A DNA stretch of 64,000 nt from an uncultured virus (IMG/VR IMGVR_UViG_3300010430_000021) (taxonomy: Duplodnaviria; Heunggongvirae; Uroviricota; Caudoviricetes): IMG/VR virus record IMGVR_UViG_3300010430_000021; one strand, given 5' to 3'. The notes beneath the pieces were generated by a model. It was not told where the DNA came from. It did no database searches and saw only the letters and a list, made by a program, of their open reading frames with translations. A program made the translations under genes and the position numbers. Positions 2,601 through 61,861 of the stretch are shown here, piece after piece (the stretch's first letter is position 1; every line of letters begins with the position of its first letter).

Positions 2601-4115
2601 CTATCTTTCGCAATAGCAGCACAAGCGCCGCGCAGGGTTTTGGGTGAGGGCGGGAGGATCGTCCATCTCTGCCATCGCTTTGTGTGCGGGCGCTAGGTGG
2701 GTAACATCGGAAAGGTCGAGCCTGAGTAGTTCGACGAGCTTACCTATCTTTTGGACTTCCATCCATTTGACTTTGCCCTGCCCGATCTTGTTCAGGCTCC
2801 AACCTGGCCAGCGATTCCCTTTGCCGAAGGCTTGGGCGATGCTCTCGGGCTCCCCGTCACTATTCAGCACGACCTCCACGGTGAACTTGGGGCGTCCTTT
2901 GATGGTGCGGATCGAGTAGACCTTGATGAACTTGAGAGAGATCTTCGTGCCGTAGCCGTGCTCTGATTGCCCGATGCAATGCCCTAGGGCTTCGGACTCG
3001 GCAGGCAGATCATCCGGGCGAAGCTCGACGATGTAGGAACCATCCTTGAACGTGTAGAAGGTGCGTTCTTCCTCTGTGCGATTGTCGTCGGTCTCGAATT
3101 GCTCTTCACCTTCGTCTAGCTCTTCCGAGAGCCTTTCGTTGATGTTGCTGATCATCTCATCCCAATCGGGCTTATAGAAGACGGCTGTAGAAGAGTCCAT
3201 GTGTACTTGAATCTGCTTGTAAGCATCGTCGCGCATATCAAAGAGCGTTTCCGACTCGAGCAGGTAGTCTGCATCGCCGTCGTAGTCCGTGAACAACCGG
3301 ATCGCTTCGTCCACTTCGTCGGAGTAGATGTTGCTGGGCAAGCCGCCCATATCAAAATCGAACTCCAACGATGCCGAGATTGGAACGATGAAGGTGCCAA
3401 AATCGTAAGATGGGTCGTAGTCGTCGATCTTGAATTGGTAAAGCTCTGCGTCTTGGAGGAAGAGCATCATCGCTTCTTCGATGTCACTGCTCGGGATGTC
3501 CGTGGTCTCGTTCCAACGCTCGAACATATCGTCCAAGCGTCCTTCGGGATCGTGAATGGATTCCGAGAGCTCATCGAACGTCAAGCGCTCGAGGTTTTGT
3601 GCAAGCTCGTCTTTGGCGCCATCCTCTTGGTGAGATGCTCGGATGTATTCCTTGTGCCAGTCCCATTGCTGTTTGAGCACACTGAAGAGCTTGTCGATGC
3701 GAGCACGGCTGTTGGGATCGTTGTTGTAGATCGCAGTGCGTACCGCGCCCGTGAGCGTCGAGATTTCCGGGTACGAGAATGCGCTCCGAGGGAGCTTGAT
3801 GATCTCCTCTTCGGACAAATCCTCGAGAGGGACGTAGATAGGCTCTTGCCAAGCCAGGTCTTTCGCTCCGTTCTCTGTGGAGCTTGCAACGATCTGGTCC
3901 CAGAACTCGAGGCCCTTGGCGACTTCTTCGGCTGGCCACTGCTTGAAGTCTTCCATCTCCGACTTGAGCGAGTGCCTGTAGTTGATTAGGGCATCGTCGA
4001 AGTCTTTGTAACCTTCTTGCTGGTCGATCGCTTGCTCGAACATCTCAAACGCGAATGCGCGAGCGCGGTCTTTGGAATCGAACTGGTTGATCTCTGGATT
4101 GTTCTTCAAGCCCAT
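2601..4115 (-). CDS. Acidic protein with C-terminal PcfJ-like domain
   Basis: ESEALGHCIG...VYSIR...PKFTVEV...QAFGKGN matches the PcfJ-like pattern. Confidence 0.7.
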   Translation of the reverse strand: MGLKNNPEINQFDSKDRARAFAFEMFEQAIDQQEGYKDFDDALINYRHSLKSEMEDFKQWPAEEVAKGLEFWDQIVASSTENGAKDLAWQEPIYVPLEDLSEEEIIKLPRSAFSYPEISTLTGAVRTAIYNNDPNSRARIDKLFSVLKQQWDWHKEYIRASHQEDGAKDELAQNLERLTFDELSESIHDPEGRLDDMFERWNETTDIPSSDIEEAMMLFLQDAELYQFKIDDYDPSYDFGTFIVPISASLEFDFDMGGLPSNIYSDEVDEAIRLFTDYDGDADYLLESETLFDMRDDAYKQIQVHMDSSTAVFYKPDWDEMISNINERLSEELDEGEEQFETDDNRTEEERTFYTFKDGSYIVELRPDDLPAESEALGHCIGQSEHGYGTKISLKFIKVYSIRTIKGRPKFTVEVVLNSDGEPESIAQAFGKGNRWPGWSLNKIGQGKVKWMEVQKIGKLVELLRLDLSDVTHLAPAHKAMAEMDDPPALTQNPARRLCCYCER

Positions 4116-16268: not shown

Positions 16269-16907
16269 ATGTCAAATCCAACCGAACAATCCACCAGCTT
16301 CCCAAAACTAGAGCGCTGCATCGCCGACATCAAGATCTGGCAGAAGGACGTTCGCGCAACGCCCGACGACAAGCTCGATCCCGCCGTCAAGAACCAGCTC
16401 GTCAACAACGTCGCGCCGTTCTTCTCGAGCTTGGTCACAGCCGTGAGCGAAGAGCTCGGAGAGCAGGCGGCCATTCTTGCAGACCAAGCAGACGGTCTCG
16501 ACATGCTCATCAACCAGGAGGGGGACATGCTCCAGCCTGAGATGGCGGGCAACCTCACGACCACGCTCATTCTGGGCATGGCAGTCATTGAGATTTTGAA
16601 GGTCGAGAACGTGAAGCTCTCGGACGACCTCAAGAACAAGAAGCTCCAAGATGCCATGAAGCACTACGAGCAAAACGCAACCATCATGCTCGACCAGATC
16701 GAGGCAGTCACACTAGAAGACGAGGAAGAAGATGACAACAACGACGACGGAAACGACGGAGACGAAGGTGGGCTTCATGGAGAAGGTGGAGACAGTGAAG
16801 AACATGACTCCAGCGGAGAAGGAAGCGTTAGCGATATTGCAGTCGCAGCCGGCGCAGACGGAGACGGAGACGGAGACGGAGACGACACCGACGCCGCCAC
16901 CGATTGA
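16269..16907 (+). CDS. Helical protein with very acidic C-terminal tail
   Basis: ATG 5 nt after the previous stop; D/E/G-rich tail. Confidence 0.7.
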   Translation: MSNPTEQSTSFPKLERCIADIKIWQKDVRATPDDKLDPAVKNQLVNNVAPFFSSLVTAVSEELGEQAAILADQADGLDMLINQEGDMLQPEMAGNLTTTLILGMAVIEILKVENVKLSDDLKNKKLQDAMKHYEQNATIMLDQIEAVTLEDEEEDDNNDDGNDGDEGGLHGEGGDSEEHDSSGEGSVSDIAVAAGADGDGDGDGDDTDAATD

Positions 16908-18678
16908 TCCAGAACCCGAAGTCGAGGAAGAGATCATCGAAGAGGTGGTCCCCGAAGCTGCACCCCCAAAGAAAGTGAAGGCAAAAATGCCAGTCATTGA
17001 ACGAGAAGCACCAGCGCCAACGCCACAAGCAATTTCCTCTATGCGGGAGGATGAGGCCGCAGACCTTCGATCGATGATCGAAGACATGGCCGCCGACAAG
17101 GGCTATGAAGTCCGCGTATACCGCACAAGCCCCAAGAAGTGGGTCAACCCCGATGGCAACACAGTAAGCATCGAAGGCTGGCAAGGCACTTTCGAGGAGT
17201 GGCAGACGGAAGAAGAGCTCAAGCAAATGTACGGAGGGGGAACCTTCCAACTGAAGATCTTCTCACCCGATGCAAAAGGCTCTCTGAGGTATTTCAAGAC
17301 CGCCTCAGTAAAAGTCTCAGGCTCCCCAAAGCACCCAGACATCATCAAAGAAGACGCGCTACCTCAGCCGCTCGACTTTGGGCATTCGATGCCCGCGGAG
17401 GACAACTCCCTTGGAGCGCAAGCGATGTCCACGATGCAGGCGTTGCTCGACAAGAAGCAAGAGAACACAGGGATGGACCCTGTGATGATCGAGCTCATCA
17501 CGGGACCGCTCAAAGCTCAGATCGAGTCCACCAACGCGACCATGCTCTCCTTGCAGCAAAGCATGGTCGAGAAAGACAGCAAGATTTTGGAACTCATCAC
17601 CCACAAGCCCGACACTTCTGAGAAGGACGGTCTTCTCAACAAGATGTTCGACACGGAAGCAAGCCGCTCGAATCATCTCCGCGCCACGCACGAGAGTGAG
17701 ATGCGGCAGATGCGAGAGAACGCTCGAGAGGACATCAAGCGTGCCGAAGATCGACACCGCGATGAGCTCCGCGACCGCACCGAGTCACACCGCCGAGAGA
17801 TTGACAGCTTGCAGCGGTCCAACGACAACATGATGGCCACGACCAAGATGGCCTACGAGTCCCAGATGCAGAGCCTCAAGGCTGAGATCACTCGGGCCCA
17901 GCTCGACCTCACCGAAGCTCGAGCGGAGCTCGGAGCTCTCAGGTTGAAGAAGGACAAGACTCTGATCGAGCAAGCGAGCGAATTGCAGCTCGTGGGCGAG
18001 TCATTAAAGAGTCTCGGAATCGGCGGGGCCAAAGACGACGACACCGACGATCGCAAGTGGTACGAGAAGCTCGTCGGCCAGGTTGTCGAGAACCCCGAGG
18101 GCGTTGCCCAAGTGGTCGGCATGGTCACGGGAGGGGGCAATCCAGCCCAACCGAACCCGCCACAGCAGTTCGCGCCGCCCCCGCAGCAACTCGAAGCGCC
18201 CGCGCCGCAAGCGCCGCAAGCGCCGCAAGCGCCACAGGAGGCCCAACAAGAGCGGGTCTACGACGTGGACGAGATTCCAATTGGCCAGCCGTTCCGCGGC
18301 GAAGACGGCGAGGTGTACGTCAAAGTGCCACCTGATGGGAGCATTGTGACTTACGCTCAGGCCGAGAAGATGGCACAGGAACTTGAGGCACAAGCTCAAG
18401 AAAATTCAGACGTTAAGAAGCCTTCCGAGACGGAAGTGAAGATGGCCATCTCCTTCATGGAGTCGGCGTTCACGGCGGGTACCGAGGCAGCTACATTTGC
18501 CGCTGGCGCGCGTTCTGCCATCCCTGGGGGCATTCTCGAGTATATCGAGAGTGTAGGTGTTGACACTTTCCTCAATGAAGTGGCAGTCTTGGACCAGAAT
18601 AGTCCACTGAGGAACCAAGCAGGCAGAACTTTCATGAGGGATGTCGCGAAGTTTCTTTTAGAGGGCATTCCGGGATAG
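16732..18678 (+). CDS. Large coiled-coil/low-complexity protein (possible scaffold or assembly factor)
   Basis: 648 aa, central heptad-rich region, Pro/Gln-rich linkers; no Walker A motif seen. Confidence 0.8.
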   Translation: MTTTTTETTETKVGFMEKVETVKNMTPAEKEALAILQSQPAQTETETETETTPTPPPIDPEPEVEEEIIEEVVPEAAPPKKVKAKMPVIEREAPAPTPQAISSMREDEAADLRSMIEDMAADKGYEVRVYRTSPKKWVNPDGNTVSIEGWQGTFEEWQTEEELKQMYGGGTFQLKIFSPDAKGSLRYFKTASVKVSGSPKHPDIIKEDALPQPLDFGHSMPAEDNSLGAQAMSTMQALLDKKQENTGMDPVMIELITGPLKAQIESTNATMLSLQQSMVEKDSKILELITHKPDTSEKDGLLNKMFDTEASRSNHLRATHESEMRQMRENAREDIKRAEDRHRDELRDRTESHRREIDSLQRSNDNMMATTKMAYESQMQSLKAEITRAQLDLTEARAELGALRLKKDKTLIEQASELQLVGESLKSLGIGGAKDDDTDDRKWYEKLVGQVVENPEGVAQVVGMVTGGGNPAQPNPPQQFAPPPQQLEAPAPQAPQAPQAPQEAQQERVYDVDEIPIGQPFRGEDGEVYVKVPPDGSIVTYAQAEKMAQELEAQAQENSDVKKPSETEVKMAISFMESAFTAGTEAATFAAGARSAIPGGILEYIESVGVDTFLNEVAVLDQNSPLRNQAGRTFMRDVAKFLLEGIPG

Positions 18679-18716: not shown

Positions 18717-19253
18717 TTGAAAGCACTAGGACACAGAGTAGATCTTGAAGCACCCTTCAAAGGGGCGCCTCAAACCGTTGCGCTCATCAAGAAGTACGCT
18801 CTTGAAGCGCAACGAGATCCACGAGTCCGACTGCTCGCGGAAGAGATTGTCAGTGGTCTCGGCTCAAAAGATTATTTGAGCGAGATCGCTGCGATCTACT
18901 ACTACGTTCTCAATCATACTCGCTACGCCAATGACCCTAGGACGGTGGAACTTGTTCGCCGGCCTGGGCGCATTGTTGCCGAGCTCGCCTCGGGAAAAAC
19001 CCCTAGCTTGGACTGTGACGATATGGTCACGTTCCAGGCTGCTCTGCTTTTGGCGCTAGGCCGAGAGGTACGCATCGTCACGATCGCGTTCCAGAAGGTC
19101 AAGTACCAAGGGCAGATTCAATACTCCCACGTCTACTTGCAGGCGAGGGAGCCTCGAACCGCACGCTGGCTCGTGCTTGATCCCGTAGCCGCCGAAGAAA
19201 TGCAGCAGATGCTCAATAGGGGCAAAGCTATCAAAATCTGGCCCCTGGCCTAA
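18717..19253 (+). CDS. Transglutaminase-like cysteine protease (putative virion maturation protease)
   Basis: LDCDD (Cys), SHVY (His), VLDP (Asp) triad; first gene of the membrane-protein cluster. Confidence 0.8.
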   Translation: MKALGHRVDLEAPFKGAPQTVALIKKYALEAQRDPRVRLLAEEIVSGLGSKDYLSEIAAIYYYVLNHTRYANDPRTVELVRRPGRIVAELASGKTPSLDCDDMVTFQAALLLALGREVRIVTIAFQKVKYQGQIQYSHVYLQAREPRTARWLVLDPVAAEEMQQMLNRGKAIKIWPLA

Positions 19254-19263
19254 AAGGAACACT

Positions 19264-20280
19264 ATGTCTTTCTACAACAAACCCTGGAACGCTGGATACG
19301 CACTGCCCGCTTACGCGGAAGCGGAAGATCCTTTGGTGCGCGGTAGCGCGAAGACAACTCCTTGGGCTCCCCGAGGCACCATCTCGAAAGTCCCCCCTGG
19401 CTCTAAGCTGGGCGGGTACGCCGTGCCTGCATACGTTCGTGCTGAGCCTGTAGGAAGCCAGGCGAAGACGACTCCTTGGTTGGCTCGAGGGACGTTCGAT
19501 GGCAACGTCACCAAGCTCAAGACGGGCCTGCCCTACTCCGAACATTCCCTAGCGAGCAACGGCCTTGGTGCTCTAGGAAGTCACAGCTCGCTTTCAGGCA
19601 ACACTGTCGCCGGTAGCTCGGTTGGCGGAAGCAACCCGATCGAGTCCTACGGACAGAAGGCCGCCGCGGCGATCCTCTTCGACTTCAAGAACATCCCTCT
19701 TGGTAAGAGGGACGAAGCGTTGCGCGAGCTCTTGGGACAAATCGACCCGAAGCTCTACAGCGCCGCCAAGAAAGCCATCAAGGAGCAGAAGGCCATGGGC
19801 CTCAAAGGTGAGAAGGCCGAGAAGGCTGGACTCGCTACGGCTTTCACTCACGGACTCACCAAAGAGTTCATGAAGCTCGGCAAGGGCCGCAAGCCTGTCG
19901 CGCCCGGCCTGAAAAACGGCCAGGTCGCTCTTGGAGCTCTCGTAGGCTTCGAGGCTCAGGCGGACAACTACCAAGACCTCGGGGGACTCTTGAGTGACAT
20001 CAAGAGCACTCTCAAGAAGATTGGCGGGTACGCCTGTGACGTGGCCACGCATCCCATCACTCCGATCGCCGCTGGCGCCGCTGGCGCGTACTACGGTGGC
20101 CCGCAAGGAGCATCCACAGCCACAGCAGGTGCCGGCGTCGCTGCCGCGGCCTGCTCCATTGGCAAACAACCTGCCCCGGGCCCTGCCTACGCTCCACAAG
20201 GCGGCGGTATGCCTGTCTGGGCGCTTCCTGCCATCATTGGCGGTGGTGCTCTTGCCCTTATCTTTGCACTGAAGAAATAG
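19264..20280 (+). CDS. Tail-anchored putative virion membrane protein
   Basis: Gly/Ala-rich with duplicated N-terminal motif; C-terminal TM + KK. Confidence 0.75.
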   Translation: MSFYNKPWNAGYALPAYAEAEDPLVRGSAKTTPWAPRGTISKVPPGSKLGGYAVPAYVRAEPVGSQAKTTPWLARGTFDGNVTKLKTGLPYSEHSLASNGLGALGSHSSLSGNTVAGSSVGGSNPIESYGQKAAAAILFDFKNIPLGKRDEALRELLGQIDPKLYSAAKKAIKEQKAMGLKGEKAEKAGLATAFTHGLTKEFMKLGKGRKPVAPGLKNGQVALGALVGFEAQADNYQDLGGLLSDIKSTLKKIGGYACDVATHPITPIAAGAAGAYYGGPQGASTATAGAGVAAAACSIGKQPAPGPAYAPQGGGMPVWALPAIIGGGALALIFALKK

Positions 20281-20281
20281 G

Positions 20282-20944
20282 ATGAGCCAAATGCAACGAC
20301 ATAACCATCAAGACCTCGGCTGGTGGTGGGAATCTGAGGACTACGGCGACGAGATTAAAAAGATCCGCGCTATTTCTGAAGGCTTCCGTGCTGTGCAACT
20401 ACCTGAGCAAATCCCGCTCTCAACAGCCAAGAGGATATTCACGGATGTTCTCCAGGCCGCGGGCGAGTTCACTCATGAGGTGGAGGTGGAGACCGGGAAG
20501 ACCGGGAACATCTTTGTCCACGAGCAGATCGCTGCCCGTGGGTTTAGTGTGATGCACGATGTTCAAAAGATGAACAGCAAGCTAATACCCATCATCCACA
20601 AGGCGATGGACGAAGGTGCCAGTATGGTGCCCTCGGGACAATTCAAGTACCAGGCAATCCTAATAACATCATCCATCGCCGCGTCCTATGAAGCGTTGGC
20701 AGAGATCCACGATGCGAAGCCTTGGTTCCTTCGTGGGGCTGGTGTGGATGCCGTCATCAAGTCACTCGTGAGCGCAGGGCGCGCGGTTCAGTTCGTTGCG
20801 GCCTATACGGTCGATCCTCTCAAGAACGCGCTCGACGCAGCCGACGACACCATGGCGAAGATGATCACCGTGCTCAAGTGGAGCTCCGTTGCAGGCGGAC
20901 TCTTCCTTCTATACAGAGCAATCGAGCCCAAGAAAGGCAAATAA
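20282..20944 (+). CDS. Tail-anchored putative virion membrane protein
   Basis: N-terminal QDLG; C-terminal TM + KKGK. Confidence 0.7.
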   Translation: MSQMQRHNHQDLGWWWESEDYGDEIKKIRAISEGFRAVQLPEQIPLSTAKRIFTDVLQAAGEFTHEVEVETGKTGNIFVHEQIAARGFSVMHDVQKMNSKLIPIIHKAMDEGASMVPSGQFKYQAILITSSIAASYEALAEIHDAKPWFLRGAGVDAVIKSLVSAGRAVQFVAAYTVDPLKNALDAADDTMAKMITVLKWSSVAGGLFLLYRAIEPKKGK

Positions 20945-20946
20945 CC

Positions 20947-21378
20947 ATGAGCAGCATCTACAGCGCACGTTCCATCGCCCTTTCTCTGGGCATGGGAGAG
21001 ACGCAAGCAACACTCTCCATCGGTCAGATGAACCGACGCCCGCGCGTGAGCGACCCCGACGCCGCATCTACTGTGCTCATCGTCAAAGCGATGCAGCGAG
21101 GACTCAACGTGATTGGTTGCGGCCTCAAAGAGACTGGACGCATCGACGACAGCACAGCCTCTTGTATGGTCGAAGTGTGCGGGCCTCTGTGGCAGAACAA
21201 GACCTGGCTCCACATTGGACAAGACATTCTTTGGGCCCAGGGCGAGGGTCGCAAAATCTCTCGAGGGAAAGCCCTTGAAGGTGTCGGGCACGACGGTCTC
21301 AGCGGAGGCAGCTTCGGAAGCAGCGCCGCAGCACTCGTTTCCATCATCGCACTCGCATACTTCTCGTTCAGAAAATAG
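20947..21378 (+). CDS. Tail-anchored protein with peptidoglycan-binding-like domain
   Basis: VKAMQRGLN...LKETGRIDDST pattern; C-terminal TM + RK. Confidence 0.6.
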   Translation: MSSIYSARSIALSLGMGETQATLSIGQMNRRPRVSDPDAASTVLIVKAMQRGLNVIGCGLKETGRIDDSTASCMVEVCGPLWQNKTWLHIGQDILWAQGEGRKISRGKALEGVGHDGLSGGSFGSSAAALVSIIALAYFSFRK

Positions 21379-21386
21379 GAAACACT

Positions 21387-21872
21387 ATGAGCTACAAAGT
21401 AGTCAGCGGCGTGTGCCGCCCACAAACATTCGAGGCCCTTGAGCAGTACAAAGGCGTTCAGCGAGAGACAAACCGTTTGCTCGACATGCAGGACGCGAAG
21501 TTGCTGTACGTCGATGGCCGCATCGGGGACAAGACCCGACTAGCCATCAACAAGGTTCTGGGCACGTCGTTCAAGACCTGTTCTGAGATTGCCGATCGCA
21601 TCGCGACGCTTTGGGTTAGCTTGAAGGGTCTCGCCGAGAGCAGCAATGCCGCGGTGGTCGCCGATCCCGAGAGCCCCGTGCGAAGCGTGATTTCTCCCCC
21701 CTCGAAGTACAACGCGGCGACCAACAAGGTTGTCCACCCAAGCATCTCGACGGCGGGAATCGCGGGCGTCCCTCTTTGGGCGATTGCGTTGTTCGGCGCG
21801 GGTGGCGCGTACTACTTCAGAAAAACCAAGAGCGGCAAGAAGCAGTGGAAGTCGCTCACAGGAGGCTTCTAA
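21387..21872 (+). CDS. Tail-anchored protein with peptidoglycan-binding-like domain
   Basis: VQRETNR...LYVDGRIGDKTRLAI pattern; C-terminal TM + basic tail. Confidence 0.65.
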   Translation: MSYKVVSGVCRPQTFEALEQYKGVQRETNRLLDMQDAKLLYVDGRIGDKTRLAINKVLGTSFKTCSEIADRIATLWVSLKGLAESSNAAVVADPESPVRSVISPPSKYNAATNKVVHPSISTAGIAGVPLWAIALFGAGGAYYFRKTKSGKKQWKSLTGGF

Positions 21873-22213
21873 TGCAATACTACTATCACGCAGCCTACCC
21901 TCGTAAGTACAATGCAGAGACGCGCACCATGCGACCCGAGAACTCGAGGGCCGCAGAAGCGAAGTCCCTTGGTTCCCTCCACAATAAAGGCCATGGTTCT
22001 CTCGGTAGCCGTTATGTCGGCCCTGTCTCTGCACAAGACCTCGGCAAAGAGAGCTACTTCGGAGCTCAAAGTTTGTCGGGTCAGAACTACTTCGGAGGAC
22101 AAGACCTAGGCAACCTTCTCTCGAACAACGAGAAGCGTCTTGTTGCTATTGGAGTGATCGGCATCGTCGGCTACTTCGCATTCGGCAAGAAGATCAAGAA
22201 AGCCCTCAAGTAA
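21872..22213 (+). CDS. Tail-anchored protein with repeated (QD/S)LG motifs
   Basis: TAATG coupling at both ends; C-terminal TM + KKIKK. Confidence 0.7.
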   Translation: MQYYYHAAYPRKYNAETRTMRPENSRAAEAKSLGSLHNKGHGSLGSRYVGPVSAQDLGKESYFGAQSLSGQNYFGGQDLGNLLSNNEKRLVAIGVIGIVGYFAFGKKIKKALK

Positions 22214-22533
22214 TGCGCTACTCCGTTTGGAATCAAGGTGCTCGTCAATACGATTATTACGAGACACCCGAAGTGCAGCTCGGTGCAAACACGCCGTCGC
22301 CGAAACACATCCGTTCGCAAGACCTCGGAGTGCCGGTCGATCGAGCGGGTTGGCCTCTTCCTGGCTCCGCACGGAAGGTCGGCAGTGGCGCGATGGCACA
22401 AGGTCGTATAGCATCGCGCCGCGGCGTCGGTTTGCCGCTTGGAGCAATCCGAATGGATAGCAATATGATCGGCATGGTGGGTCTCGGCGTTGCCGCGTTC
22501 CTACTTTGGAAAAACGGCTTTCTTAAAGCATGA
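22213..22533 (+). CDS. Tail-anchored putative virion protein
   Basis: C-terminal IGMVGLGVAAFLLWK. Confidence 0.7.
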   Translation: MRYSVWNQGARQYDYYETPEVQLGANTPSPKHIRSQDLGVPVDRAGWPLPGSARKVGSGAMAQGRIASRRGVGLPLGAIRMDSNMIGMVGLGVAAFLLWKNGFLKA

Positions 22534-23009
22534 ACCTCGCAATCAAACTGTACGAAGACTTTCACAAGTACCCGCCTACCAAGATAGGCGACTTCCCTGA
22601 TTCGTTCTTCATTCCAGAGCAGGCCACCTTTGTAGGCCCTGCGCTGTACGTGCTCTACCGTTCTGCGAAGTGCGACCCGATCACGTACATCAAACCAGAC
22701 AAGCCAGAGAACTACATCCACGAGCACAAGAGTGGTGTGAAGATCTGCATCGTCGATAGCGATGACGGTCCTGAGAAGAAAATCCCTCAGTACGTTCACC
22801 GCGTCGATGGCTTGACGTTCCTAGGGAAATGTCTGGGCTTCGGTTTCATCGACCACGACGGCGATGACATCGAAGCGAAATGCACAAGCTCCGAGCTCTA
22901 CGCGATACCTTCCGGCAAAGCACTTCTCGTCGTCGAGAAGAAGAAGAAAGTCACGGCGATTATTTGGGGAGGCAAACTGAATGTCGAACCAAGAGGGATT
23001 GTAGGTTAG
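22530..23009 (+). CDS. Soluble hypothetical protein of the virion module
   Basis: ATGA coupling; beta-rich, YIHEH motif. Confidence 0.7.
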   Translation: MNLAIKLYEDFHKYPPTKIGDFPDSFFIPEQATFVGPALYVLYRSAKCDPITYIKPDKPENYIHEHKSGVKICIVDSDDGPEKKIPQYVHRVDGLTFLGKCLGFGFIDHDGDDIEAKCTSSELYAIPSGKALLVVEKKKKVTAIIWGGKLNVEPRGIVG

Positions 23010-23620: not shown

Positions 23621-24844
23621 TTGCCCATTTACTATGTAAATCCTGCGAAACGCAGAGCAGCGACGAAAAAGCGCACGACCGTAAAACGTGCCGCCGCCAC
23701 GGGTTCGATCAAACGAGTTTCCACAAGCTCGAAGAAGGCTTCAAAGAAGAAGCCCTCTGGTAAGAAAACGGCGGCTCGAAAGCCCGCCACAACCAAACCC
23801 AAGCAGGGGAAAAAGAAAATGGCGAAGAAACTGTACGGAGCCGCTGCCGCTGCCCGCAAAAAGCGGCTGGCAAAACTCAAGCGCAAGCGGAGCGCAAAGA
23901 AAAATCCTTCTTCCAAGCGGAAGAGCACCACCAAGAGCCGTAGCACGGCAGCGAAGAAAGCAGCAGCAACGCGCAAGCGTAAAGCAGCAGCCCGAAGCGC
24001 AGCAGCTAAGAAGGCCGCCCGCACGCGCAAGCGTCGCGCAGGTGCGAAAAAGAATCCAGCCCGCAAGCGGAAGCGTACAGCAGTGAAGCGACGCAAGAGC
24101 GTGGCCAAGCGACGCACGAAGCGCAAGAGCTACAAGCGCAACCCAGCACCGAAGCGTCGGAAGCTGTCGGCTGCCGCTCGCAAGCGCCGCAAGTCGTATG
24201 GCGGAAAGCGCTCGAGCCGCGGGATGAAGAGCATCTCCAAGGCACGACGATCCATCAAGGCCGCTCGTCGGCGCGGCGGACTGTCTGGTTCCTTCGTCAA
24301 GAAGTACAAGATGAAGACGAACCCAGGCGGAATGAAGCAGGCAATCATGACTGCTCTCCCCATCGCCGGATCGTTCTACGTGTCCAAGCTGGCAGCCAAC
24401 AAGCTCGGAGACATCCCAGCCGTTGGTAACGTCCTCAGCAAGCTCAACGTCGGTGGTTACGACCTCGGCAAGCCTGCTCTTCAGGGACTCATGCTGGCCG
24501 GTGCTCACTACGGCACCAAAAAAGGCGCTCTCGCGAAGCACCGCACGGGCCTCATGCTCGGCACCGCTCTCGCTTTCGTCGATTCCTTGATTGCTACCTT
24601 CGCTCCAGCGGACGTGAAGAGCATGATCGGAATGCAGGGAGCTTCTCTCCCCGCAGCCACGGGCGAGTACGTCGCTTCGGGTGAGTACGTTGCTTCTAGC
24701 GAGTACGTCTCTACCGACGAGTACGTCTCGATGGACGGTCTCCACGAGATCCACGCCATCCATGGCATTGACGAAGAGCTCGGCGCAATCGAAGCAGGCG
24801 CCGACGTTGGAGTGAACAACGGAATCTTCGCCAACGGCTGGTAA
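23621..24844 (+). CDS. Histone H1-like Lys/Arg-rich core protein with hydrophobic C-terminal domain
   Basis: About 230 aa K/R/A/S-rich region with xxNP motifs, then amphipathic helices and EYV repeats; start may be TTG 23621 or ATG 23819. Confidence 0.8.
   Translation: MPIYYVNPAKRRAATKKRTTVKRAAATGSIKRVSTSSKKASKKKPSGKKTAARKPATTKPKQGKKKMAKKLYGAAAAARKKRLAKLKRKRSAKKNPSSKRKSTTKSRSTAAKKAAATRKRKAAARSAAAKKAARTRKRRAGAKKNPARKRKRTAVKRRKSVAKRRTKRKSYKRNPAPKRRKLSAAARKRRKSYGGKRSSRGMKSISKARRSIKAARRRGGLSGSFVKKYKMKTNPGGMKQAIMTALPIAGSFYVSKLAANKLGDIPAVGNVLSKLNVGGYDLGKPALQGLMLAGAHYGTKKGALAKHRTGLMLGTALAFVDSLIATFAPADVKSMIGMQGASLPAATGEYVASGEYVASSEYVSTDEYVSMDGLHEIHAIHGIDEELGAIEAGADVGVNNGIFANGW
24661..24730 (+). repeat. 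18-bp coding tandem repeat (xEYVxx x4)
   Basis: GAGTACGT core repeated four times at 18-bp period. Confidence 0.85.
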
Positions 24845-25029: not shown

Positions 25030-25593
25030 ATGCCAAGAATCCACGGAACCCGCGAACGACGACACCAGCCAATTTACGATAGCCTTCTGCGCACCACGGG
25101 TGCTCCGGCTACGACTCTTCAGCCAAGCACCAAGCTGTTCGGCAACGCCAACGTTGGCAACCTTTCCCTCACCAACCTCCAGGTCGCTGGACAGTTGGCA
25201 TCGGATCAAACCTACATCGTCATGGCACTTCGTTGCTTCATGTACTTCGTGGGTACCAACGCTACGGCTCTGTTCCAGCAAGTTGCTTCTCAGTTGACGT
25301 TCACCTTTACTCTTGGCGACAAGCCTCAGTTCGTTGCTCCAGCTTGGTACCTTCCAGCAGGTGGCGGCGTCTACGGCCCGAACGACTCGAGCAACGGTTG
25401 GCCTTCACAGGACGCAATTCTGAAACTGGCACGTCCTATCGTGATCCCAGTTCGACAGAACATCAGCGTCGACGCTCAGTTCTTCGCAGTCGGTTCGACT
25501 TCGGCCCTCACCACGATCAATGGTGCTGCCGGTGACGATCAGATGTCCGTGATCTACATGATCGACGGCATCCAGACTCGCGACGTTCAGTAG
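25030..25593 (+). CDS. Putative major capsid protein 1 (single jelly-roll-like)
   Basis: GGAG RBS, strong codon bias, structured leader and downstream terminator; beta-rich with QPIYD...TNLQVAGQLA motif. Fold is inferred. Confidence 0.55.
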   Translation: MPRIHGTRERRHQPIYDSLLRTTGAPATTLQPSTKLFGNANVGNLSLTNLQVAGQLASDQTYIVMALRCFMYFVGTNATALFQQVASQLTFTFTLGDKPQFVAPAWYLPAGGGVYGPNDSSNGWPSQDAILKLARPIVIPVRQNISVDAQFFAVGSTSALTTINGAAGDDQMSVIYMIDGIQTRDVQ

Positions 25594-25749: not shown

Positions 25750-26358
25750 ATGAACGCTCAACAAGTAATCCGTCAGCTTGTCGCTGGCCAAAACGAGCTC
25801 AAGGCTCAATTCAAGCTCCTTCTCGCCAGTGAGGATGGACCGCGCAGCATCACGGAAGAGATTGACGCTCTCCCTGGCCGCCGCATCTTCTACAACCTGT
25901 CGGGACGCCAGAGCTTCACGATCGCTCAGCTTGCCCAGCGCAACGAGCCCGTGTCCTTCACAGTTTCGCAAGACGGCCCATTCGTCATGACGCACTACCC
26001 GCTCGTCATGTGGAAGCCAAACTTGCCGTCCACCGCCGACAACCTCGGCAAGTGGTCGCCGGTCGCTAGCTGGCCCGTCCCTGTTCAGCAGGAGACGAAC
26101 CAAGACTCGATCAACCTCTCCTACGAATTCTTTGATGGCGGCGCACAACGCGCTTTCAACAACGAACTCGCTGCGCCGCTCTTCTCGCGGCCCGACAACC
26201 TGGCACCGCTCCCCGTGCCTACGCTGTTCGCCCCCAACGCGAACGTCCAATTCTTCCCCACCTACGAGGACATCGAGTTCGCCGCAGGTGCAACCGTCGC
26301 AACGACGGGTGGGCAGTTGGTTGTCACCCTTCCCGGCTACCGAATCGTACAACTCTAG
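25750..26358 (+). CDS. Putative capsid protein 2 (single jelly-roll-like)
   Basis: GGAG RBS; 202 aa beta-rich (VSQDGPFVMTH...PVPTLFAPNANVQF...VVTLPGYR). Fold is inferred. Confidence 0.5.
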   Translation: MNAQQVIRQLVAGQNELKAQFKLLLASEDGPRSITEEIDALPGRRIFYNLSGRQSFTIAQLAQRNEPVSFTVSQDGPFVMTHYPLVMWKPNLPSTADNLGKWSPVASWPVPVQQETNQDSINLSYEFFDGGAQRAFNNELAAPLFSRPDNLAPLPVPTLFAPNANVQFFPTYEDIEFAAGATVATTGGQLVVTLPGYRIVQL

Positions 26359-30466: not shown

Positions 30467-30952
30467 ATGCAAGCCAAGAAAAAAGAGATATTCCAGATGG
30501 CTGGGGACCAAAGCAGGGGCGTGACCTCTGGTGCGAACCTCACCAACTCTGCGATCTGTCATCCAGTTGTACTCTACCGCGGGCGCGGCATGGAGCGCCT
30601 TCTCACTTTGGACGTGTTCGCAATGCCGGGCACCCCAATGTACGCGGTAGTCTACTGCCCCCTTTGTCAAACGCGCGATCCTGAGAACAAGTTGAACCGC
30701 TCTCTCACGATCAAAGAGGACAACAAGAAGATCGACCTCGATCTGAAAGCAATTCCATCCATCCCTGGGTTCACGACCTCGGAGCTCGTCCAAGAACTCG
30801 GCTTGCAAAGCAAGGACGAGCTCCGGGGGCGTATTTCTATCGAGCCCTTCGGATGCACCTGGGAGGAAGACCCTGAACTGAGGCGAGGCTTCGGGTTTTC
30901 ATGCTGCAACTGGAAAGTTGCAATCACCAACAACATCGCTAGGGACGTTTAA
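30467..30952 (+). CDS. Putative zinc-binding protein
   Basis: YCPLC and FGC...SCCNW. Confidence 0.65.
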   Translation: MQAKKKEIFQMAGDQSRGVTSGANLTNSAICHPVVLYRGRGMERLLTLDVFAMPGTPMYAVVYCPLCQTRDPENKLNRSLTIKEDNKKIDLDLKAIPSIPGFTTSELVQELGLQSKDELRGRISIEPFGCTWEEDPELRRGFGFSCCNWKVAITNNIARDV

Positions 30953-30954
30953 CA

Positions 30955-31551
30955 ATGGCACTCAAAAATATGATCAAGCTCAAGGACAAAGTGACCTTTG
31001 GGCGTTCCGGCGATGTGAAGCGCAAAGGTACAGTCATCCAACTCAACCCGAAGACGGCGCATGTCAAGTGCTCGAATGGGGACGTGATGGCTGTGACCTA
31101 CAACCTGATCCAGAAGACAACCGCCCGCTTGGAGCGCAAGGGTAAAAAGCCCTCCAACAGACCGCGCAACATGACGGGCCAACCTGGTGAAGTGAGCAGT
31201 AAGAAAGCCCTAGAGCGATGGTCAATCAAGGATTTGACCCACTGGCTTTACGTTGCTGGCGTCGGTGTGAAGCCAGGCACTAAGAAAAGCACACTCGTGA
31301 ATTCCGTATGGACACGGATGCGTAGGGGCAAGGCGAAGAAGAACCCGTCGCAACGCACAACTGCCCACCCCCCTGGAGTGTCAACCCCTAGGAAGAACAC
31401 CTACGCGCATTGGCTCTTGGGGCAGAACAAGACCCAACTCAAAAAGCTGGACAAGGCGTATGAAGTCCTCCTTAAAGGGAGCGGCAAGGGACTCAGCGGG
31501 CTCAAAGCCAAGCACACAGAGGTCAAGAAAGAGCTCCGCAAGAGGAAGTAA
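30955..31551 (+). CDS. Basic protein with SH3/KOW-like N-terminus and KKNP motif
   Basis: KDKVTF...GTVIQLNPKTAHVK; very Lys-rich. Confidence 0.65.
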   Translation: MALKNMIKLKDKVTFGRSGDVKRKGTVIQLNPKTAHVKCSNGDVMAVTYNLIQKTTARLERKGKKPSNRPRNMTGQPGEVSSKKALERWSIKDLTHWLYVAGVGVKPGTKKSTLVNSVWTRMRRGKAKKNPSQRTTAHPPGVSTPRKNTYAHWLLGQNKTQLKKLDKAYEVLLKGSGKGLSGLKAKHTEVKKELRKRK

Positions 31552-40210: not shown

Positions 40211-40930
40211 ATGAGTTTCGATAAAACGCAAGTCATTGTCCAAACTCTTGAGGGGCAGATCGAGACACTCACGAAGAGTGTCCGGTCTGCTACTCGAGAG
40301 ATTTCCGAATACGACGGCGCGAGCACTATTTGTGGCCAGCTCGCCCAATCTGTCCTGAATTACGACGAGCTCATTGAGGCCCGTCTCGTCAAGGAAGATG
40401 TTCCTGAAGAGACTGCCCAATTGGTCCGCGTCTACACCAAGAATTTGATTGTCCGTTTGCACGCCCTCTGCACCAGCAATGAGAAGGAGCAGGCCAATCA
40501 GTCTCTCATCATGTCTGGGCGCCGAGACGAGCGCATGAGGCAAATCGACTCCCTCACGAAGCAGATTGTCCAGCACAAGAACTTCGCCACGCAGAGAGCG
40601 GCCCAGGAGGTTCTCAACGCTGCTGAGGAAGCCGACATCGACGCGGAATTCGACAATAGCGATGTCGAGGCCATCATCCCAGCCACGCCCGTGCCGCCGC
40701 CTGTAGAGGTTCCTGGGACTCAGCCTCCCAAACCCGCGCCAGCGCCTCTCCCTGAGCCTCCTACGCCCGTCGCAGAGGAAGAGCCGGAGCCGGAGCAAGA
40801 ATCGGAGCCTGAGAACGTTTCCGCCGTTCCTGAGCCCGTTTCCGAGCCTCCTACCAACGTTGTGAACCTTCCGCACAAGCCCAAGCCCAAGCCGAGCAGG
40901 CGAAACCTGAGAAATCGTAAGAAAAGGTAA
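40211..40930 (+). CDS. Coiled-coil protein with Pro/Glu-rich tail (possible chaperone)
   Basis: Helical N-half, PE-rich C-half, basic end. Confidence 0.7.
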   Translation: MSFDKTQVIVQTLEGQIETLTKSVRSATREISEYDGASTICGQLAQSVLNYDELIEARLVKEDVPEETAQLVRVYTKNLIVRLHALCTSNEKEQANQSLIMSGRRDERMRQIDSLTKQIVQHKNFATQRAAQEVLNAAEEADIDAEFDNSDVEAIIPATPVPPPVEVPGTQPPKPAPAPLPEPPTPVAEEEPEPEQESEPENVSAVPEPVSEPPTNVVNLPHKPKPKPSRRNLRNRKKR

Positions 40931-41517
40931 TGGGCCTCACACCAGATCAGGCCGCTGGCCCTTCCGACGAGGAAGAGGTCCAGTTTGAAGACCGAGGGCC
41001 CGCGGGGGATAGCACGGGCGATCCAACCGCGGCAGGCGCCCTGCGCCGTGTCACGAACGCGCTTCGTTTCTTCGTCGGCGGCGCCGTCCGCCAGGTGTTG
41101 CAGGCCAAGAACCCGCCCACAGGGTTTGACGACATCGACTTGACCGGCATCGCAAGCGGTCAAGGACTCGCCTACAACGCTACCTCCAAACAATTCGAGC
41201 CCCAAACCTTCGCAGGCGGCGGCTACGACTCCGCGGTCCACCGAGCAGAAGATCAGCTCGTTCACACCATCGCGGAAGACTCTTTCGAGGAAGTCTCGCG
41301 CACCGGCAACAAGGTCGATTCTATCATAGTCTGGACTACCGCTGGCAAAACGCAGAAGATCCGAGAAGAGCTCTACACGTACTCGGGGAATCAAGTGACC
41401 ACGATCGTCACCAAGCAGTACGACGCTGCCGGAGTTCTCGTTCCAGGGGAAACCATGACTGAAACCTTCAACTACACAGGCTCCACACTCAACAACATCA
41501 CAAGGGTGATGAGCTAA
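40930..41517 (+). CDS. Putative fibre-associated virion protein
   Basis: TAATG coupling; GQGLAYNATSKQFEP and YTYSGNQVTTI strands. Confidence 0.65.
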   Translation: MGLTPDQAAGPSDEEEVQFEDRGPAGDSTGDPTAAGALRRVTNALRFFVGGAVRQVLQAKNPPTGFDDIDLTGIASGQGLAYNATSKQFEPQTFAGGGYDSAVHRAEDQLVHTIAEDSFEEVSRTGNKVDSIIVWTTAGKTQKIREELYTYSGNQVTTIVTKQYDAAGVLVPGETMTETFNYTGSTLNNITRVMS

Positions 41518-47975: not shown

Positions 47976-48169
47976 GGTAGCTCCATCATCAATTCCGCTG
48001 CTTCTTCTTGAGCACCGGCAGCTATTTTGACTAGCTGGTGAATCTTTTCGAGGGTGGTTAGGGTTTGGTAATCCTCAATGTCGGGGGTGATTGGATCCTT
48101 CTCCATGCTCACCGACGTTGCGATGTTGTTTCTTGCGGCTCTAAGGTCCGCTGGGCGTCTCTTCGGCAT
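47972..48169 (-). CDS. Small hypothetical protein
   Basis: GGAGG RBS; ATGA coupling. Confidence 0.5.
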   Translation of the reverse strand: MPKRRPADLRAARNNIATSVSMEKDPITPDIEDYQTLTTLEKIHQLVKIAAGAQEEAAELMMELP

Positions 48170-48773
48170 CTTCCTCCTCCTTTTTCACGTCGTATTTCTT
48201 CACGACGGCTGCTGCATCCTTGTCACTCACGAGAAGCATCTCGGGAGTCTTCTCAAAGTTGTTGCGCATGATGCGCGAACCGCTCTTGTCATCGTCCAAG
48301 CCTAGGACGTGGCCCATCTCGTGAGCAATGATGTAGAGTTGGTCGTGGATGTTGCCAGGCATCGAGATATGAATCTCCCAAGTACCGTCTGGACACTCGT
48401 AGGAAGTAGCTGCATGGCCTTCCGTTTCGTGGATTGAGAACTTGCCGCAGGGCTCACCGTTCGCCGGCAGCACTCGGACAACGCTTTCCCCTGGCATTCG
48501 TTCCTCGAGAACGCCGGCAACGAAGAGGTCGGTACCTCTCGCGCCGTGTTTCGTGGGCATGATGTTGTTCCAAAGCATGATTGCGTAGCGCCCTGGCTCC
48601 GCGTAGTCGTCGTGGTAGTCAAGAACGATAGGTACAACGGGCGTGCGTGTTGGTTTCTCACTCCACACAAGCTCTCGAGCTTGCGGTCCTGTCCTGTAGA
48701 GGTAGCCGATGAGCACCATTGCGCCGATTGCGAGTGCTAGTAGGGAGCCCATGCGTAGTAGTTTCGTTGTCAT
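48141..48773 (-). CDS. Membrane-anchored metzincin (matrixin-like) metalloprotease
   Basis: N-terminal TM; AHEMGHVLGLDD and SRIM Met-turn. Confidence 0.75.
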   Translation of the reverse strand: MTTKLLRMGSLLALAIGAMVLIGYLYRTGPQARELVWSEKPTRTPVVPIVLDYHDDYAEPGRYAIMLWNNIMPTKHGARGTDLFVAGVLEERMPGESVVRVLPANGEPCGKFSIHETEGHAATSYECPDGTWEIHISMPGNIHDQLYIIAHEMGHVLGLDDDKSGSRIMRNNFEKTPEMLLVSDKDAAAVVKKYDVKKEEEDAEETPSGP

Positions 48774-60329: not shown

Positions 60330-60623
60330 CTATTGGATAATCCTACTCTTGCCTTTGTCTGGTGTCGAGTCTGGATGGATGACTGTTATCGGCTTATCTG
60401 CGGTGAAGGTAAACTTCATGATGCCCTCTTGGCCGGTCCCCTGGATTTGGACTTTCCCCATCATTGTGAAGAGGCCAGGAATGGACGGGTCCGAGGTCAC
60501 GGCGCCCATCATCTGCCCCATGCCTGGGAAGAAGATTTGGACGGGGATGCTTTTGTCTTCAGCCTCGGAGGCTGCGATGCGTCGGTTGAGATCGATGGCG
60601 ATTGGATGTTCGGCGAAATTCAT
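60330..60623 (-). CDS. Hypothetical protein
   Basis: ATGA coupling; followed by a terminator. Confidence 0.6.
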   Translation of the reverse strand: MNFAEHPIAIDLNRRIAASEAEDKSIPVQIFFPGMGQMMGAVTSDPSIPGLFTMMGKVQIQGTGQEGIMKFTFTADKPITVIHPDSTPDKGKSRIIQ

Positions 60624-61150
60624 ATCGGATTCATACCAGAAAACAACCGTGCCAGGAGGGTCGGGTCGGGCCCGATTTGAACGGCCTTGATACCGTGTGA
60701 GACGAGCTTCTGAGCTCCCTCACCAGTAGGGCAAATCACGGCGTCGTAGACCTTCAGAGACTCGATCTCCTTGTCCACCATGATGTTCGTGCCTTCGAGG
60801 ATGGCAACGTTGGGCACGCCCACCGTGTAGAGGCCAGGGATGGCCATGGCGGGCTCGTAGGCGACGCCATCGCCGCCCTGGGAGTTCCCGAACTGAGCGG
60901 TGCTGATCGTCGCTCCTAGGGCCACGCCGGGCGGGATGCAGACCACGTTGATGAAGCGCATCTTGAGCGCAGTCATGAAGACGTGCGGCACTTTGTCCCA
61001 GGGGTGCATTCCAAAAGGGACAACACCGATAGGCATGACGCGAACCCCGAGTCCCGTCTTATCGACGGCCTCAAGGTATGGGAATGCGAGACCCTCCGAG
61101 TCCATGCTCGGTAGGGTCACGCAGGCGTAGCGGATCAGTGCTTCGTTCAC
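60620..61150 (-). CDS. Hypothetical protein (weak resemblance to a glycosyltransferase N-terminal lobe)
   Basis: NVAILE...YDAVICPT; similarity weak. Confidence 0.55.
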   Translation of the reverse strand: MNEALIRYACVTLPSMDSEGLAFPYLEAVDKTGLGVRVMPIGVVPFGMHPWDKVPHVFMTALKMRFINVVCIPPGVALGATISTAQFGNSQGGDGVAYEPAMAIPGLYTVGVPNVAILEGTNIMVDKEIESLKVYDAVICPTGEGAQKLVSHGIKAVQIGPDPTLLARLFSGMNPI

Positions 61151-61183: not shown

Positions 61184-61861
61184 CTAGTGGACCGCTTCGT
61201 CGATCATGAGGTCCATCTCGTCGTCGCTGAGGTCGGTTCCAAAGCCACTTGAGAGAACTCCCATGTCGAGGTCTTCGAGCTCGTCCTTGATTTCCTCCGC
61301 GGAGAGCGTGGCAATCGGTGGAGGAAGCTCGCCGCCCGTTGCGCCGCCGCTGGTGTTGTAGGCGGGGACAACGGATGTTGTGCGGACGGGTGCCGGCAAG
61401 ACGGACGTGCCACGAGGCGAGGCCACCGTCGAGGTGTTGAGCTGAGGCATTGGCTCACCAGGCTGCACGTTCAGGTTGTGGTCGGAGACCATCCAACCGT
61501 ACTTGGGAAGGTAGGCTTGAACCGCTGTCTGGATGGCAGCGATGCTCGCGCCGACAACAACAGGGGTGTGGTATTGCTTGACTCGATCGATCCGGTGGAC
61601 CAAGAGCCAGGCGGCGCCCGCTGCGCCTACCGTCGAGAGCACGCTTGCGTGCTTGGCTAGCTTTGGGAATCTCTTCAAGATCATCCCGTGAACGACTCGA
61701 GAAGCCATCCGGGTGCCTGCATAACCGGCGAACCCGGGGACGACAAACTCTGCGAGGTCTTGCAACGCGGGCGGGTTTGACTTCGCCACGATGTCGTTGT
61801 TCTTCTTCGCTCGTTTGGATGCGCGCTTCTTGTAGGCCGCTAGCCCTTTTTTCTTTGCCAT
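61184..61861 (-). CDS. Basic N-terminus/KSNP protein, probable paralogue of core protein 23621..24844
   Basis: MAKKKG..., KSNP, hydrophobic helices alignable by eye to the core protein C-domain, acidic tail. Confidence 0.7.
   Translation of the reverse strand: MAKKKGLAAYKKRASKRAKKNNDIVAKSNPPALQDLAEFVVPGFAGYAGTRMASRVVHGMILKRFPKLAKHASVLSTVGAAGAAWLLVHRIDRVKQYHTPVVVGASIAAIQTAVQAYLPKYGWMVSDHNLNVQPGEPMPQLNTSTVASPRGTSVLPAPVRTTSVVPAYNTSGGATGGELPPPIATLSAEEIKDELEDLDMGVLSSGFGTDLSDDEMDLMIDEAVH

Follow-up and report, generated by a model that had tools for sequence, protein, structure and literature searches.

An Asn-Pro motif conserved in a polybasic, putatively DNA-condensing core protein and in other proteins of an uncultured virus with a single-jelly-roll capsid candidate

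At the sequence level, a short motif of the form hydrophobic-basic-x-Asn-Pro-small is selected along the basic arm of a candidate core protein of an uncultured virus, at the border between this arm and a helical domain, and at the ends or joints of other proteins. The core protein is encoded at positions 23621-24844 of the analysed DNA (64,000 nt, hereafter the window). The reading that best accounts for the data, to which we give a probability of about 0.5, is that of a membrane-tethered DNA-condensing precursor in which the motif would act as both tag and cut site, as in the capsid-targeting sequences of phage T4. Its parts differ in strength: the motif very probably is a functional signal, a DNA-condensing role of the protein is considered nearly as probable, and cleavage at the motif is moderately favoured. 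The assumption that the cutter is virus-encoded, with a transglutaminase-like enzyme encoded at 18717 as lead candidate, is tentative and forms the weakest step.

The core gene and its product are organised as follows:

23621..24844, forward strand: core protein gene with a TTG start, 407 aa
aa 1-234: basic arm of the core protein, net charge +99
aa 235-340: helical hydrophobic domain
aa 341-407: acidic tail with GEYV-type repeats, net charge -12
23639..23644, forward strand: Asn7-Pro8, closing a conserved 7-residue hydrophobic N-terminal leader
23805..23821, forward strand: AGGGG (ribosome-binding-like) and internal ATG, Met67, a probable second, nested start
23903..23908, forward strand: Asn95-Pro96 (AKKNPS)
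24053..24058, forward strand: Asn145-Pro146 (AKKNPA)
24140..24145, forward strand: Asn174-Pro175 (YKRNPA)
24320..24325, forward strand: Asn234-Pro235 (MKTNPG), seam of basic arm and helical domain

The TTG start is preceded by GGAG, with an in-frame ATG at 23819, and the long-form leader follows the consensus M-P/G-I-x-F/Y-V-N, then P or G, its codons varying synonymously among relatives. Because 12/13 core genes have an internal Met with a Shine-Dalgarno match of at least 5 nt, against 2.8% of background positions, the core gene is likely to make two nested protein sizes; the one exception by this score is the window gene itself. Residues 1-235 comprise 59 Lys, 40 Arg, 43 Ala and 24 Ser (K+R 42%, K/R/A/S 71%) and no Asp or Glu. 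The helical domain, of about 105 residues, reaches moderate 19-residue hydropathy peaks of 1.32 and 1.69, and this modest hydropathy makes membrane anchoring putative. A search with the C-terminal part of the protein retrieved 16 database homologues with 44-69% identity over aa 225-407; the arm sequences are free to diverge between relatives. The protein matched no Pfam or PHROG family, including histone fold, H1 globular domain and histone-like families, and resembles H1 or protamine in composition only.

All five Asn of residues 1-235 (7, 95, 145, 174 and 234) are followed by Pro, giving in order YVNP, KKNP, KKNP, KRNP and KTNP. A first-pass annotation, made from the letters of the window, had described a basic K/R/A/S tract of about 230 aa split by five NP; this was confirmed, five NP being reached in 0 of 200,000 shuffles of the arm, with a best result of four, obtained twice. 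Its remark that Asn is otherwise nearly absent was right in that each Asn precedes Pro, but five Asn in 235 residues is not in itself odd. The last NP had been taken as the boundary to a hydrophobic domain, and NP234 does precede the helical domain in 27 of 28 aligned core sequences, the other having NA; the seam is also NP in two relatives from genome contigs, L110 and L111, and KINP in the P0004 alignment.

Asn is followed by Pro in 73 of 96 cases in 13 near core arms, the window included, and in 54 of 85 in the 16 database homologues, with up to 10 motif copies per arm. The fuller motif emerges from the 73 NP sites, which are non-independent, so that p-values are only indicative: a hydrophobic residue stands three before Asn in 41 (against 14% in the background) and a basic one in only 6 (against 43%), the position two before Asn is basic in 52, and A, G or S follows Pro in 46. 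NP is written with either Asn codon and with each of the four Pro codons, and the seven codon pairs that encode it indicate that the constraint acts on the protein. Four distant core proteins hold 76 Asn sites, with His three before Asn in 30 and NP in only 2; His, Tyr, Leu or Met are frequent at the former position and Pro almost never follows, a pattern to be expected of a site that is recognised as far as its Asn, with the following position free to change.

Other proteins carrying the motif had been proposed in the first-pass annotation; these are the first four of the following features:

61184..61861, reverse strand: paralogue of the core helical domain, whose short basic leader ends in KSNP (NP 61772-61777)
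2601..4115, reverse strand: acidic PcfJ-related protein, a candidate cargo of the particle, with NP near each terminus (4095-4100 and 2634-2639)
30955..31551, forward strand: modular basic protein with KKNP in the linker before variable C-terminal modules (NP 31342-31347)
40930..41517, forward strand: protein with AKNP (NP 41110-41115)
22530..23009, forward strand: conserved protein of no known family, with Y-x-[STC]-x-K ... Y-x-H

The motif is present in all four, and three of the families conserve it; 40930 lacks such support and was dropped from the system, as the two homologues found span aa 100-195 only and none covers AKNP. Motif statistics had been recommended as a check. Window statistics were based on 88 hand-picked genes, the core and 87 others, and in these 87 [KR]xNP was not above chance (4 seen, 3.6 expected), so that the claim of sharing rests on conservation in homologues. 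In eight related genomes, where crude gene calls covered 52-62 kb of each genome and core genes were left out, [KR]xNP occurred 42 times against 25 expected and [KR][KR]NP 13 times against 2.8, with flat DP, QP, SP and TP controls. Eight of the 42 sites belong to the 61184 paralogue family, and NP is mildly enriched in all proteins of the relatives (314 vs 251). Across the 1,133 called proteins, N-terminal motif leaders were enriched (9 vs 3.6), and C-terminal NP showed no general enrichment (29 vs 25.7).

Profile-profile comparison linked 61184 to the core family (probability 98%, E 1.4e-13), a likeness seen with family profiles and not with a single-sequence profile. The NP seam of 61184 is present in 7/7 homologues listed, and its KSNP, being explained by paralogy, is not an independent use of the motif. 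Members of the 2601 family are about 30% identical, contain a PcfJ domain, and carry the C-terminal NP in 9/9 cases and the N-terminal one in 7/9. The linker [KR]xNP of the 30955 family is found in 11/13 homologues, in several of them, and often, between different modules. Absence of NP from homologues had been named as the outcome that would speak against a signal; the motif was instead retained in the core, 61184, 2601 and 30955 families. The proposal of NP as a processing or encapsidation signal thus stands in that the motif is selected and common to 61184 (by paralogy), 2601 and 30955, and falls for 40930.

Similar arrangements were noticed in other relatives. L056:5276-6553 and L070:16965-18011 encode related multi-module proteins whose modules are parted by RRNP-type motifs; the former also matches a response-regulator receiver weakly. 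In a 160-kb relative, two PcfJ-related proteins (L108:4256-5818 and L108:13107-15548) begin with M-x-[KR]-N-P.

The 22530 family, present in 22 related loci, keeps an invariant Tyr, Lys and Tyr-x-His together with a Ser/Thr/Cys position. A domain of this type follows three NP-delimited modules in L111 (L111:14121-15809). The family has no sequence match in the PDB, nothing of use came from PHROG or Atlas, and the 22530 protein had no match among annotated phages. A predicted complex of the 22530 family with core residues 210-245 scored 0.14, against a mark of 0.32.

The first-pass annotation had placed the core gene directly upstream of a candidate capsid gene, which proved correct, the end of the former lying 185 nt from the start of the latter:

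25030..25593, forward strand: single-jelly-roll capsid protein candidate, 187 aa, model pLDDT 91.5

The best structural match of this model is the single-jelly-roll capsid of SPV1 (Portogloboviridae; 6oj0, Z 8.7, rmsd 3.8, 135 aligned), which was also the best Foldseek match (E 3.4e-3), with lower scores for P23-77 VP17 (Z 6.2) and HCIV-1 (Z 5.9). The capsid protein had no match among annotated phages, and 266 relatives of it were found. Viral contigs yielded no relatives to the capsid protein by itself or to the core alignment; a closer capsid alignment (A4) yielded 24 related loci, 11 of them near (capsid identity 53-61%, records of 23-86 kb) and 13 distant (27-32%, 45-298 kb), while two further near loci came from genome contigs (L110 and L111). 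The sole match in a metagenome scan was a 1.6-kb copy, identical over the matched part. The core gene abuts the capsid gene in 12/13 near relatives, L009 having an intervening ORF.

Genes for M15 and M23 peptidoglycan peptidases, a Dam-type methylase and an integrase are present in the window and indicate a bacterial host. Many small window genes end in a hydrophobic stretch followed by basic residues, which bears only indirectly on the presence of an inner membrane, and the virus is probably large and tailless, with a single-jelly-roll capsid and an inner membrane. A packaging ATPase of the FtsK/HerA type is a feature of P23-77- and SH1-like viruses. HerA/FtsK profiles (PF01935, PF01580) matched in 0/5 complete relatives, with positive controls, which fits condensation-driven packaging. 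No canonical Walker A was present in six frames of the window and of four relatives (G002, G004, G007 and G009), a search to be read with the provisos that the window leaves out about 11 kb of the 75.3-kb contig and that a divergent ATPase could escape detection.

The candidate maturation enzyme is encoded upstream of the core gene:

18717..19253, forward strand: transglutaminase-like enzyme with Cys100-His138-Asp155 and a TTG start, lead maturation-protease candidate

It matched Pfam Transglut_core with 24.7 bits (cut-off 23), and its fold matches are to the transglutaminase superfamily, weakly (Z at most 4.8, model pLDDT 68). The enzyme was found in 9/10 near records searched, all except one that is 62% complete, and in 10/10 distant records searched of the 13, i.e. 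in 19/20 overall. The triad is kept in the 10/10 distant copies, in 7/7 rows of alignment A7 and in gp34 of the cultured phage SSIP-1, which was the only enzyme match in 50,697 phage records and is annotated as structural. In L009 (L009:1487-2980), an intein-like insert, which we take to be an intein from its ends (it starts with Cys and ends with Asn), lies immediately before the catalytic Cys and marks a constrained site. Peptidase_C5 (PF00770) matched in 0/5 relatives, the control genomes also giving no match. A matrixin-like zinc peptidase (48141-48773), which has a hydrophobic segment near its N-terminus, was discarded as a candidate for the cutter, since the called proteins of eight relatives included no homologue. 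Just upstream of the enzyme gene, 16732-18678 encodes a large acidic coiled-coil-type protein, which is present in 8/8 near genomes scanned.

SSIP-1 is described as a tailless membrane-containing phage (PMC6356626; PMC6260650). It resembles the window virus in having the transglutaminase-like gp34 with its triad and a coiled-coil-type gene just upstream, gp33 having the same position as, and a similar layout to, the 16732-18678 protein. It also shares the motif, as RENP, HENP or RENG in the structural proteins gp40, gp41, gp43 and gp44. The 13 structural proteins contain RENP three times (0.04 expected, 0/1000 shuffles) and the other 44 not at all, a pattern chosen post hoc; the generic [KR]xNP was not significant in the structural proteins (3 vs 1.0, 82/1000 shuffles). 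In gp41, RENP stands at residues 2-5 and again before a C-terminal hydrophobic segment. The large gp43, with methyltransferase and ParB matches, has RENP before its tail, and its C-terminus, behind NP-type modules, carries a 22530-type domain (E 1e-4 within that proteome). Upstream of gp45-46, gp44 has HENP before a helical domain; its likeness to the core helical domain is one of position only (E about 0.3), and profile comparison gave no sequence tie of gp44 or gp45 to the core or capsid families, while gp46 matched the capsid profile weakly (E 0.013). Unlike the window virus, SSIP-1 is halophilic, has a 44-kb genome and an ATPase, gp40, and is without a polybasic core arm.

Taken together as a mechanism, the +99 arm, judged by its charge and gene position, would bind and neutralise the genome, about 1,500 copies of the core protein sufficing for 75 kb. 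The helical domain would hold the arm on the inner membrane, so that genome, core protein and membrane might assemble together without a packaging motor. The motif would tag proteins for packaging and, as the particle matures, would be cleaved behind its Asn; such cuts would release protamine-sized peptides of 88, 50, 29 and 60 aa, and would detach internal cargo proteins from the parts that anchor them.

Protease-driven core maturation is known from adenoviruses and from the heads of large tailed phages. With adenovirus pVII/pre-mu and its protease AVP, the present system would share basic condensing precursors, a packaged cysteine protease (here a candidate) and a motif common to several virion proteins. 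The differences are that AVP reads (M/I/L)XGG↓X or (M/I/L)XGX↓G rather than Asn-Pro, that there is no sequence match and the enzyme here is a Transglut_core one, and that five sites, a hydrophobic domain and an acidic tail set the core protein apart. The adenovirus core precursors condense more strongly than their products, cleavage loosening the core (PMC4246237). The first-pass idea of a pVII-like precursor is accordingly sustained as regards a conserved, capsid-adjacent polycation that would condense DNA, but not as regards kinship: no pVII or histone match was found (no Pfam match for the core, one irrelevant weak match among 17 homologues), and the helical domain and tail are extra. As judged from sequence, the protein is pVII-like in putative function only, not a pVII homologue or family member.

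A precedent for a short motif that is both tag and cut site comes from T4 capsid-targeting sequences with gp21, SPN3US gp245 (A-X-E) and jumbo-phage heads. In T4, one 10-residue sequence both tags and is cut (PMC9026906), and in T4-type heads scaffolds are cut to many pieces and Alt is processed at both ends (PMC9026906; PMC10052503). T4 and SPN3US differ from the window virus in being tailed, with an HK97 fold, a serine protease cutting after Glu, motor packaging and no membrane-tethered polycation. The T4-type system, with L/I-X-E or A-X-E sites where the motif here is Asn-Pro, would be one that works alike, not one to which the present virus belongs. SPV1 has an inner membrane, inside which its DNA is kept as a nucleoprotein (VP1) coil; it is archaeal, with a 20-kb genome and no processing described (PMC8459092). 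Such a nucleoprotein within a membrane is the nearest known assembly logic.

The main rival keeps the DNA-condensing core and makes the motif a docking tag that is never cut, gathering core and cargo on a reader such as the 22530 family, the capsid inner face or another scaffold, while the transglutaminase-like enzyme would act on the Leu/Met-Gly motif instead. We regard it as unlikely, if the foremost of the alternatives. Where the motif stands 4-9 residues from the N-terminus, a cut would take off next to nothing and a tag is the better fit, as in the very short M-x-[KR]-N-P leaders of SSIP-1 gp41, the 2601 family and two PcfJ-related proteins of the relative G012, and the enrichment of N-terminal leaders (9 vs 3.6 in 1,133 called proteins) points the same way. 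Up to 10 copies per arm would suit avidity, and a second motif, G[LM]G, which also occurs in SSIP-1 proteins, is enriched in two distant genomes (60 vs 35 and 45 vs 24). Asn-Pro is, in addition, a hard bond for most proteases. Against an uncut tag, the best-conserved copy lies exactly between arm and anchor, and that of SSIP-1 gp41 between cargo and anchor, both of them sensible places for a cut; clades differ in the residue that follows Asn but keep those before it under constraint; and in the T4 precedent the same 10 residues are tag and cut site (PMC9026906).

The remaining explanations are all improbable to varying degrees. Many motif copies sit inside Arg/Lys runs and NP is mildly enriched in all proteins (314 vs 251), as would suit a structural turn or DNA-groove element capping basic runs or helices, in the manner of SPKK in sperm histones, and Asn-Pro is a common turn or helix cap. 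A purely structural role is nonetheless quite improbable, given that the acidic 2601 family keeps an invariant C-terminal NP, that SSIP-1 proteins carry RENP without being basic, that a hydrophobic residue is preferred three before Asn and that Pro is lost in the distant clade. Marginally less probable still is a cleavage that needs no classical protease and proceeds through Asn cyclisation, the reaction of reovirus mu1 and of the NPTH switch in type III secretion proteins, or a use of the bond for acyl transfer (transpeptidation) that links the proteins to each other or to the membrane. The constant Asn followed by P, G, A or S, the acyl transfer performed by transglutaminase-fold enzymes and the Ser/Thr/Cys position of the 22530 family beside invariant Lys and His would agree with this; yet the core sites sit in low-complexity arms, while known self-cleavage requires, to our knowledge, a folded, strained site, and the 22530 family matched no fold or family in PDB, PHROG or Atlas. 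That the motif does nothing in the protein and merely reflects recombination or repeat expansion at the DNA level is disfavoured and very improbable: tandem repeats do multiply the motif in some arms (L011 and L110) and the modules beside it vary in the 30955 family, but seven different codon pairs encode NP, and the motif is conserved across proteins about 30% identical and occurs in SSIP-1.

Under the preferred reading, a motif acting as both tag and cut site would explain how genomes of 75-300 kb are condensed without an evident motor and how unrelated cargo proteins are loaded, with a packaging tag of four to six residues and possibly an Asn-Pro-specific enzyme; the R-E-N-P sites of SSIP-1 make a pattern otherwise confined to metagenomes testable in a cultured phage. 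A broader joint reading, doubtful as a whole, would have widespread undescribed bacterial viruses of 70-300 kb with a single-jelly-roll capsid, motorless packaging and a membrane-tethered protamine polyprotein, in which a packaged transglutaminase-fold enzyme cuts or ligates at Asn-Pro and releases protamine peptides and cargo enzymes. It would imply adenovirus-like core maturation in bacterial viruses and a new enzyme family with unusual Asn↓Pro specificity, the same system being already present in cultured SSIP-1 as R-E-N↓P. The literature search, from which most subscription journals and the original SSIP-1 paper fell outside, returned no report of such core maturation in tailless membrane phages, nor of this motif or system.

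Some minor observations concern other genes and records. Contigs L110 and L111 (69 and 89 kb) come from bacterial MAGs titled Kiloniellales and Peribacteria; mis-binning is likely, so this placement is no evidence of host. In four relatives (L009:9351-10031, L018:260-868, L019:9377-9985 and L024:9317-9931), ORFs that on inspection resemble LAGLIDADG homing endonucleases immediately precede or overlap the beginning of the capsid match, which suggests an intron in or beside the capsid gene. Conserved genes of no known family occupy 25750-26358, 30467-30952 and 60620-61105 of the window, and the first of these, which follows the capsid gene, may encode a second capsid protein. Leu/Met-Gly motifs occur in the leaders of small membrane-type proteins (window 19264-22533, 26372, 30115 and 43422), and together with the GEYV/EELG repeats of the core tail (24641-24844) they may represent a second signal.
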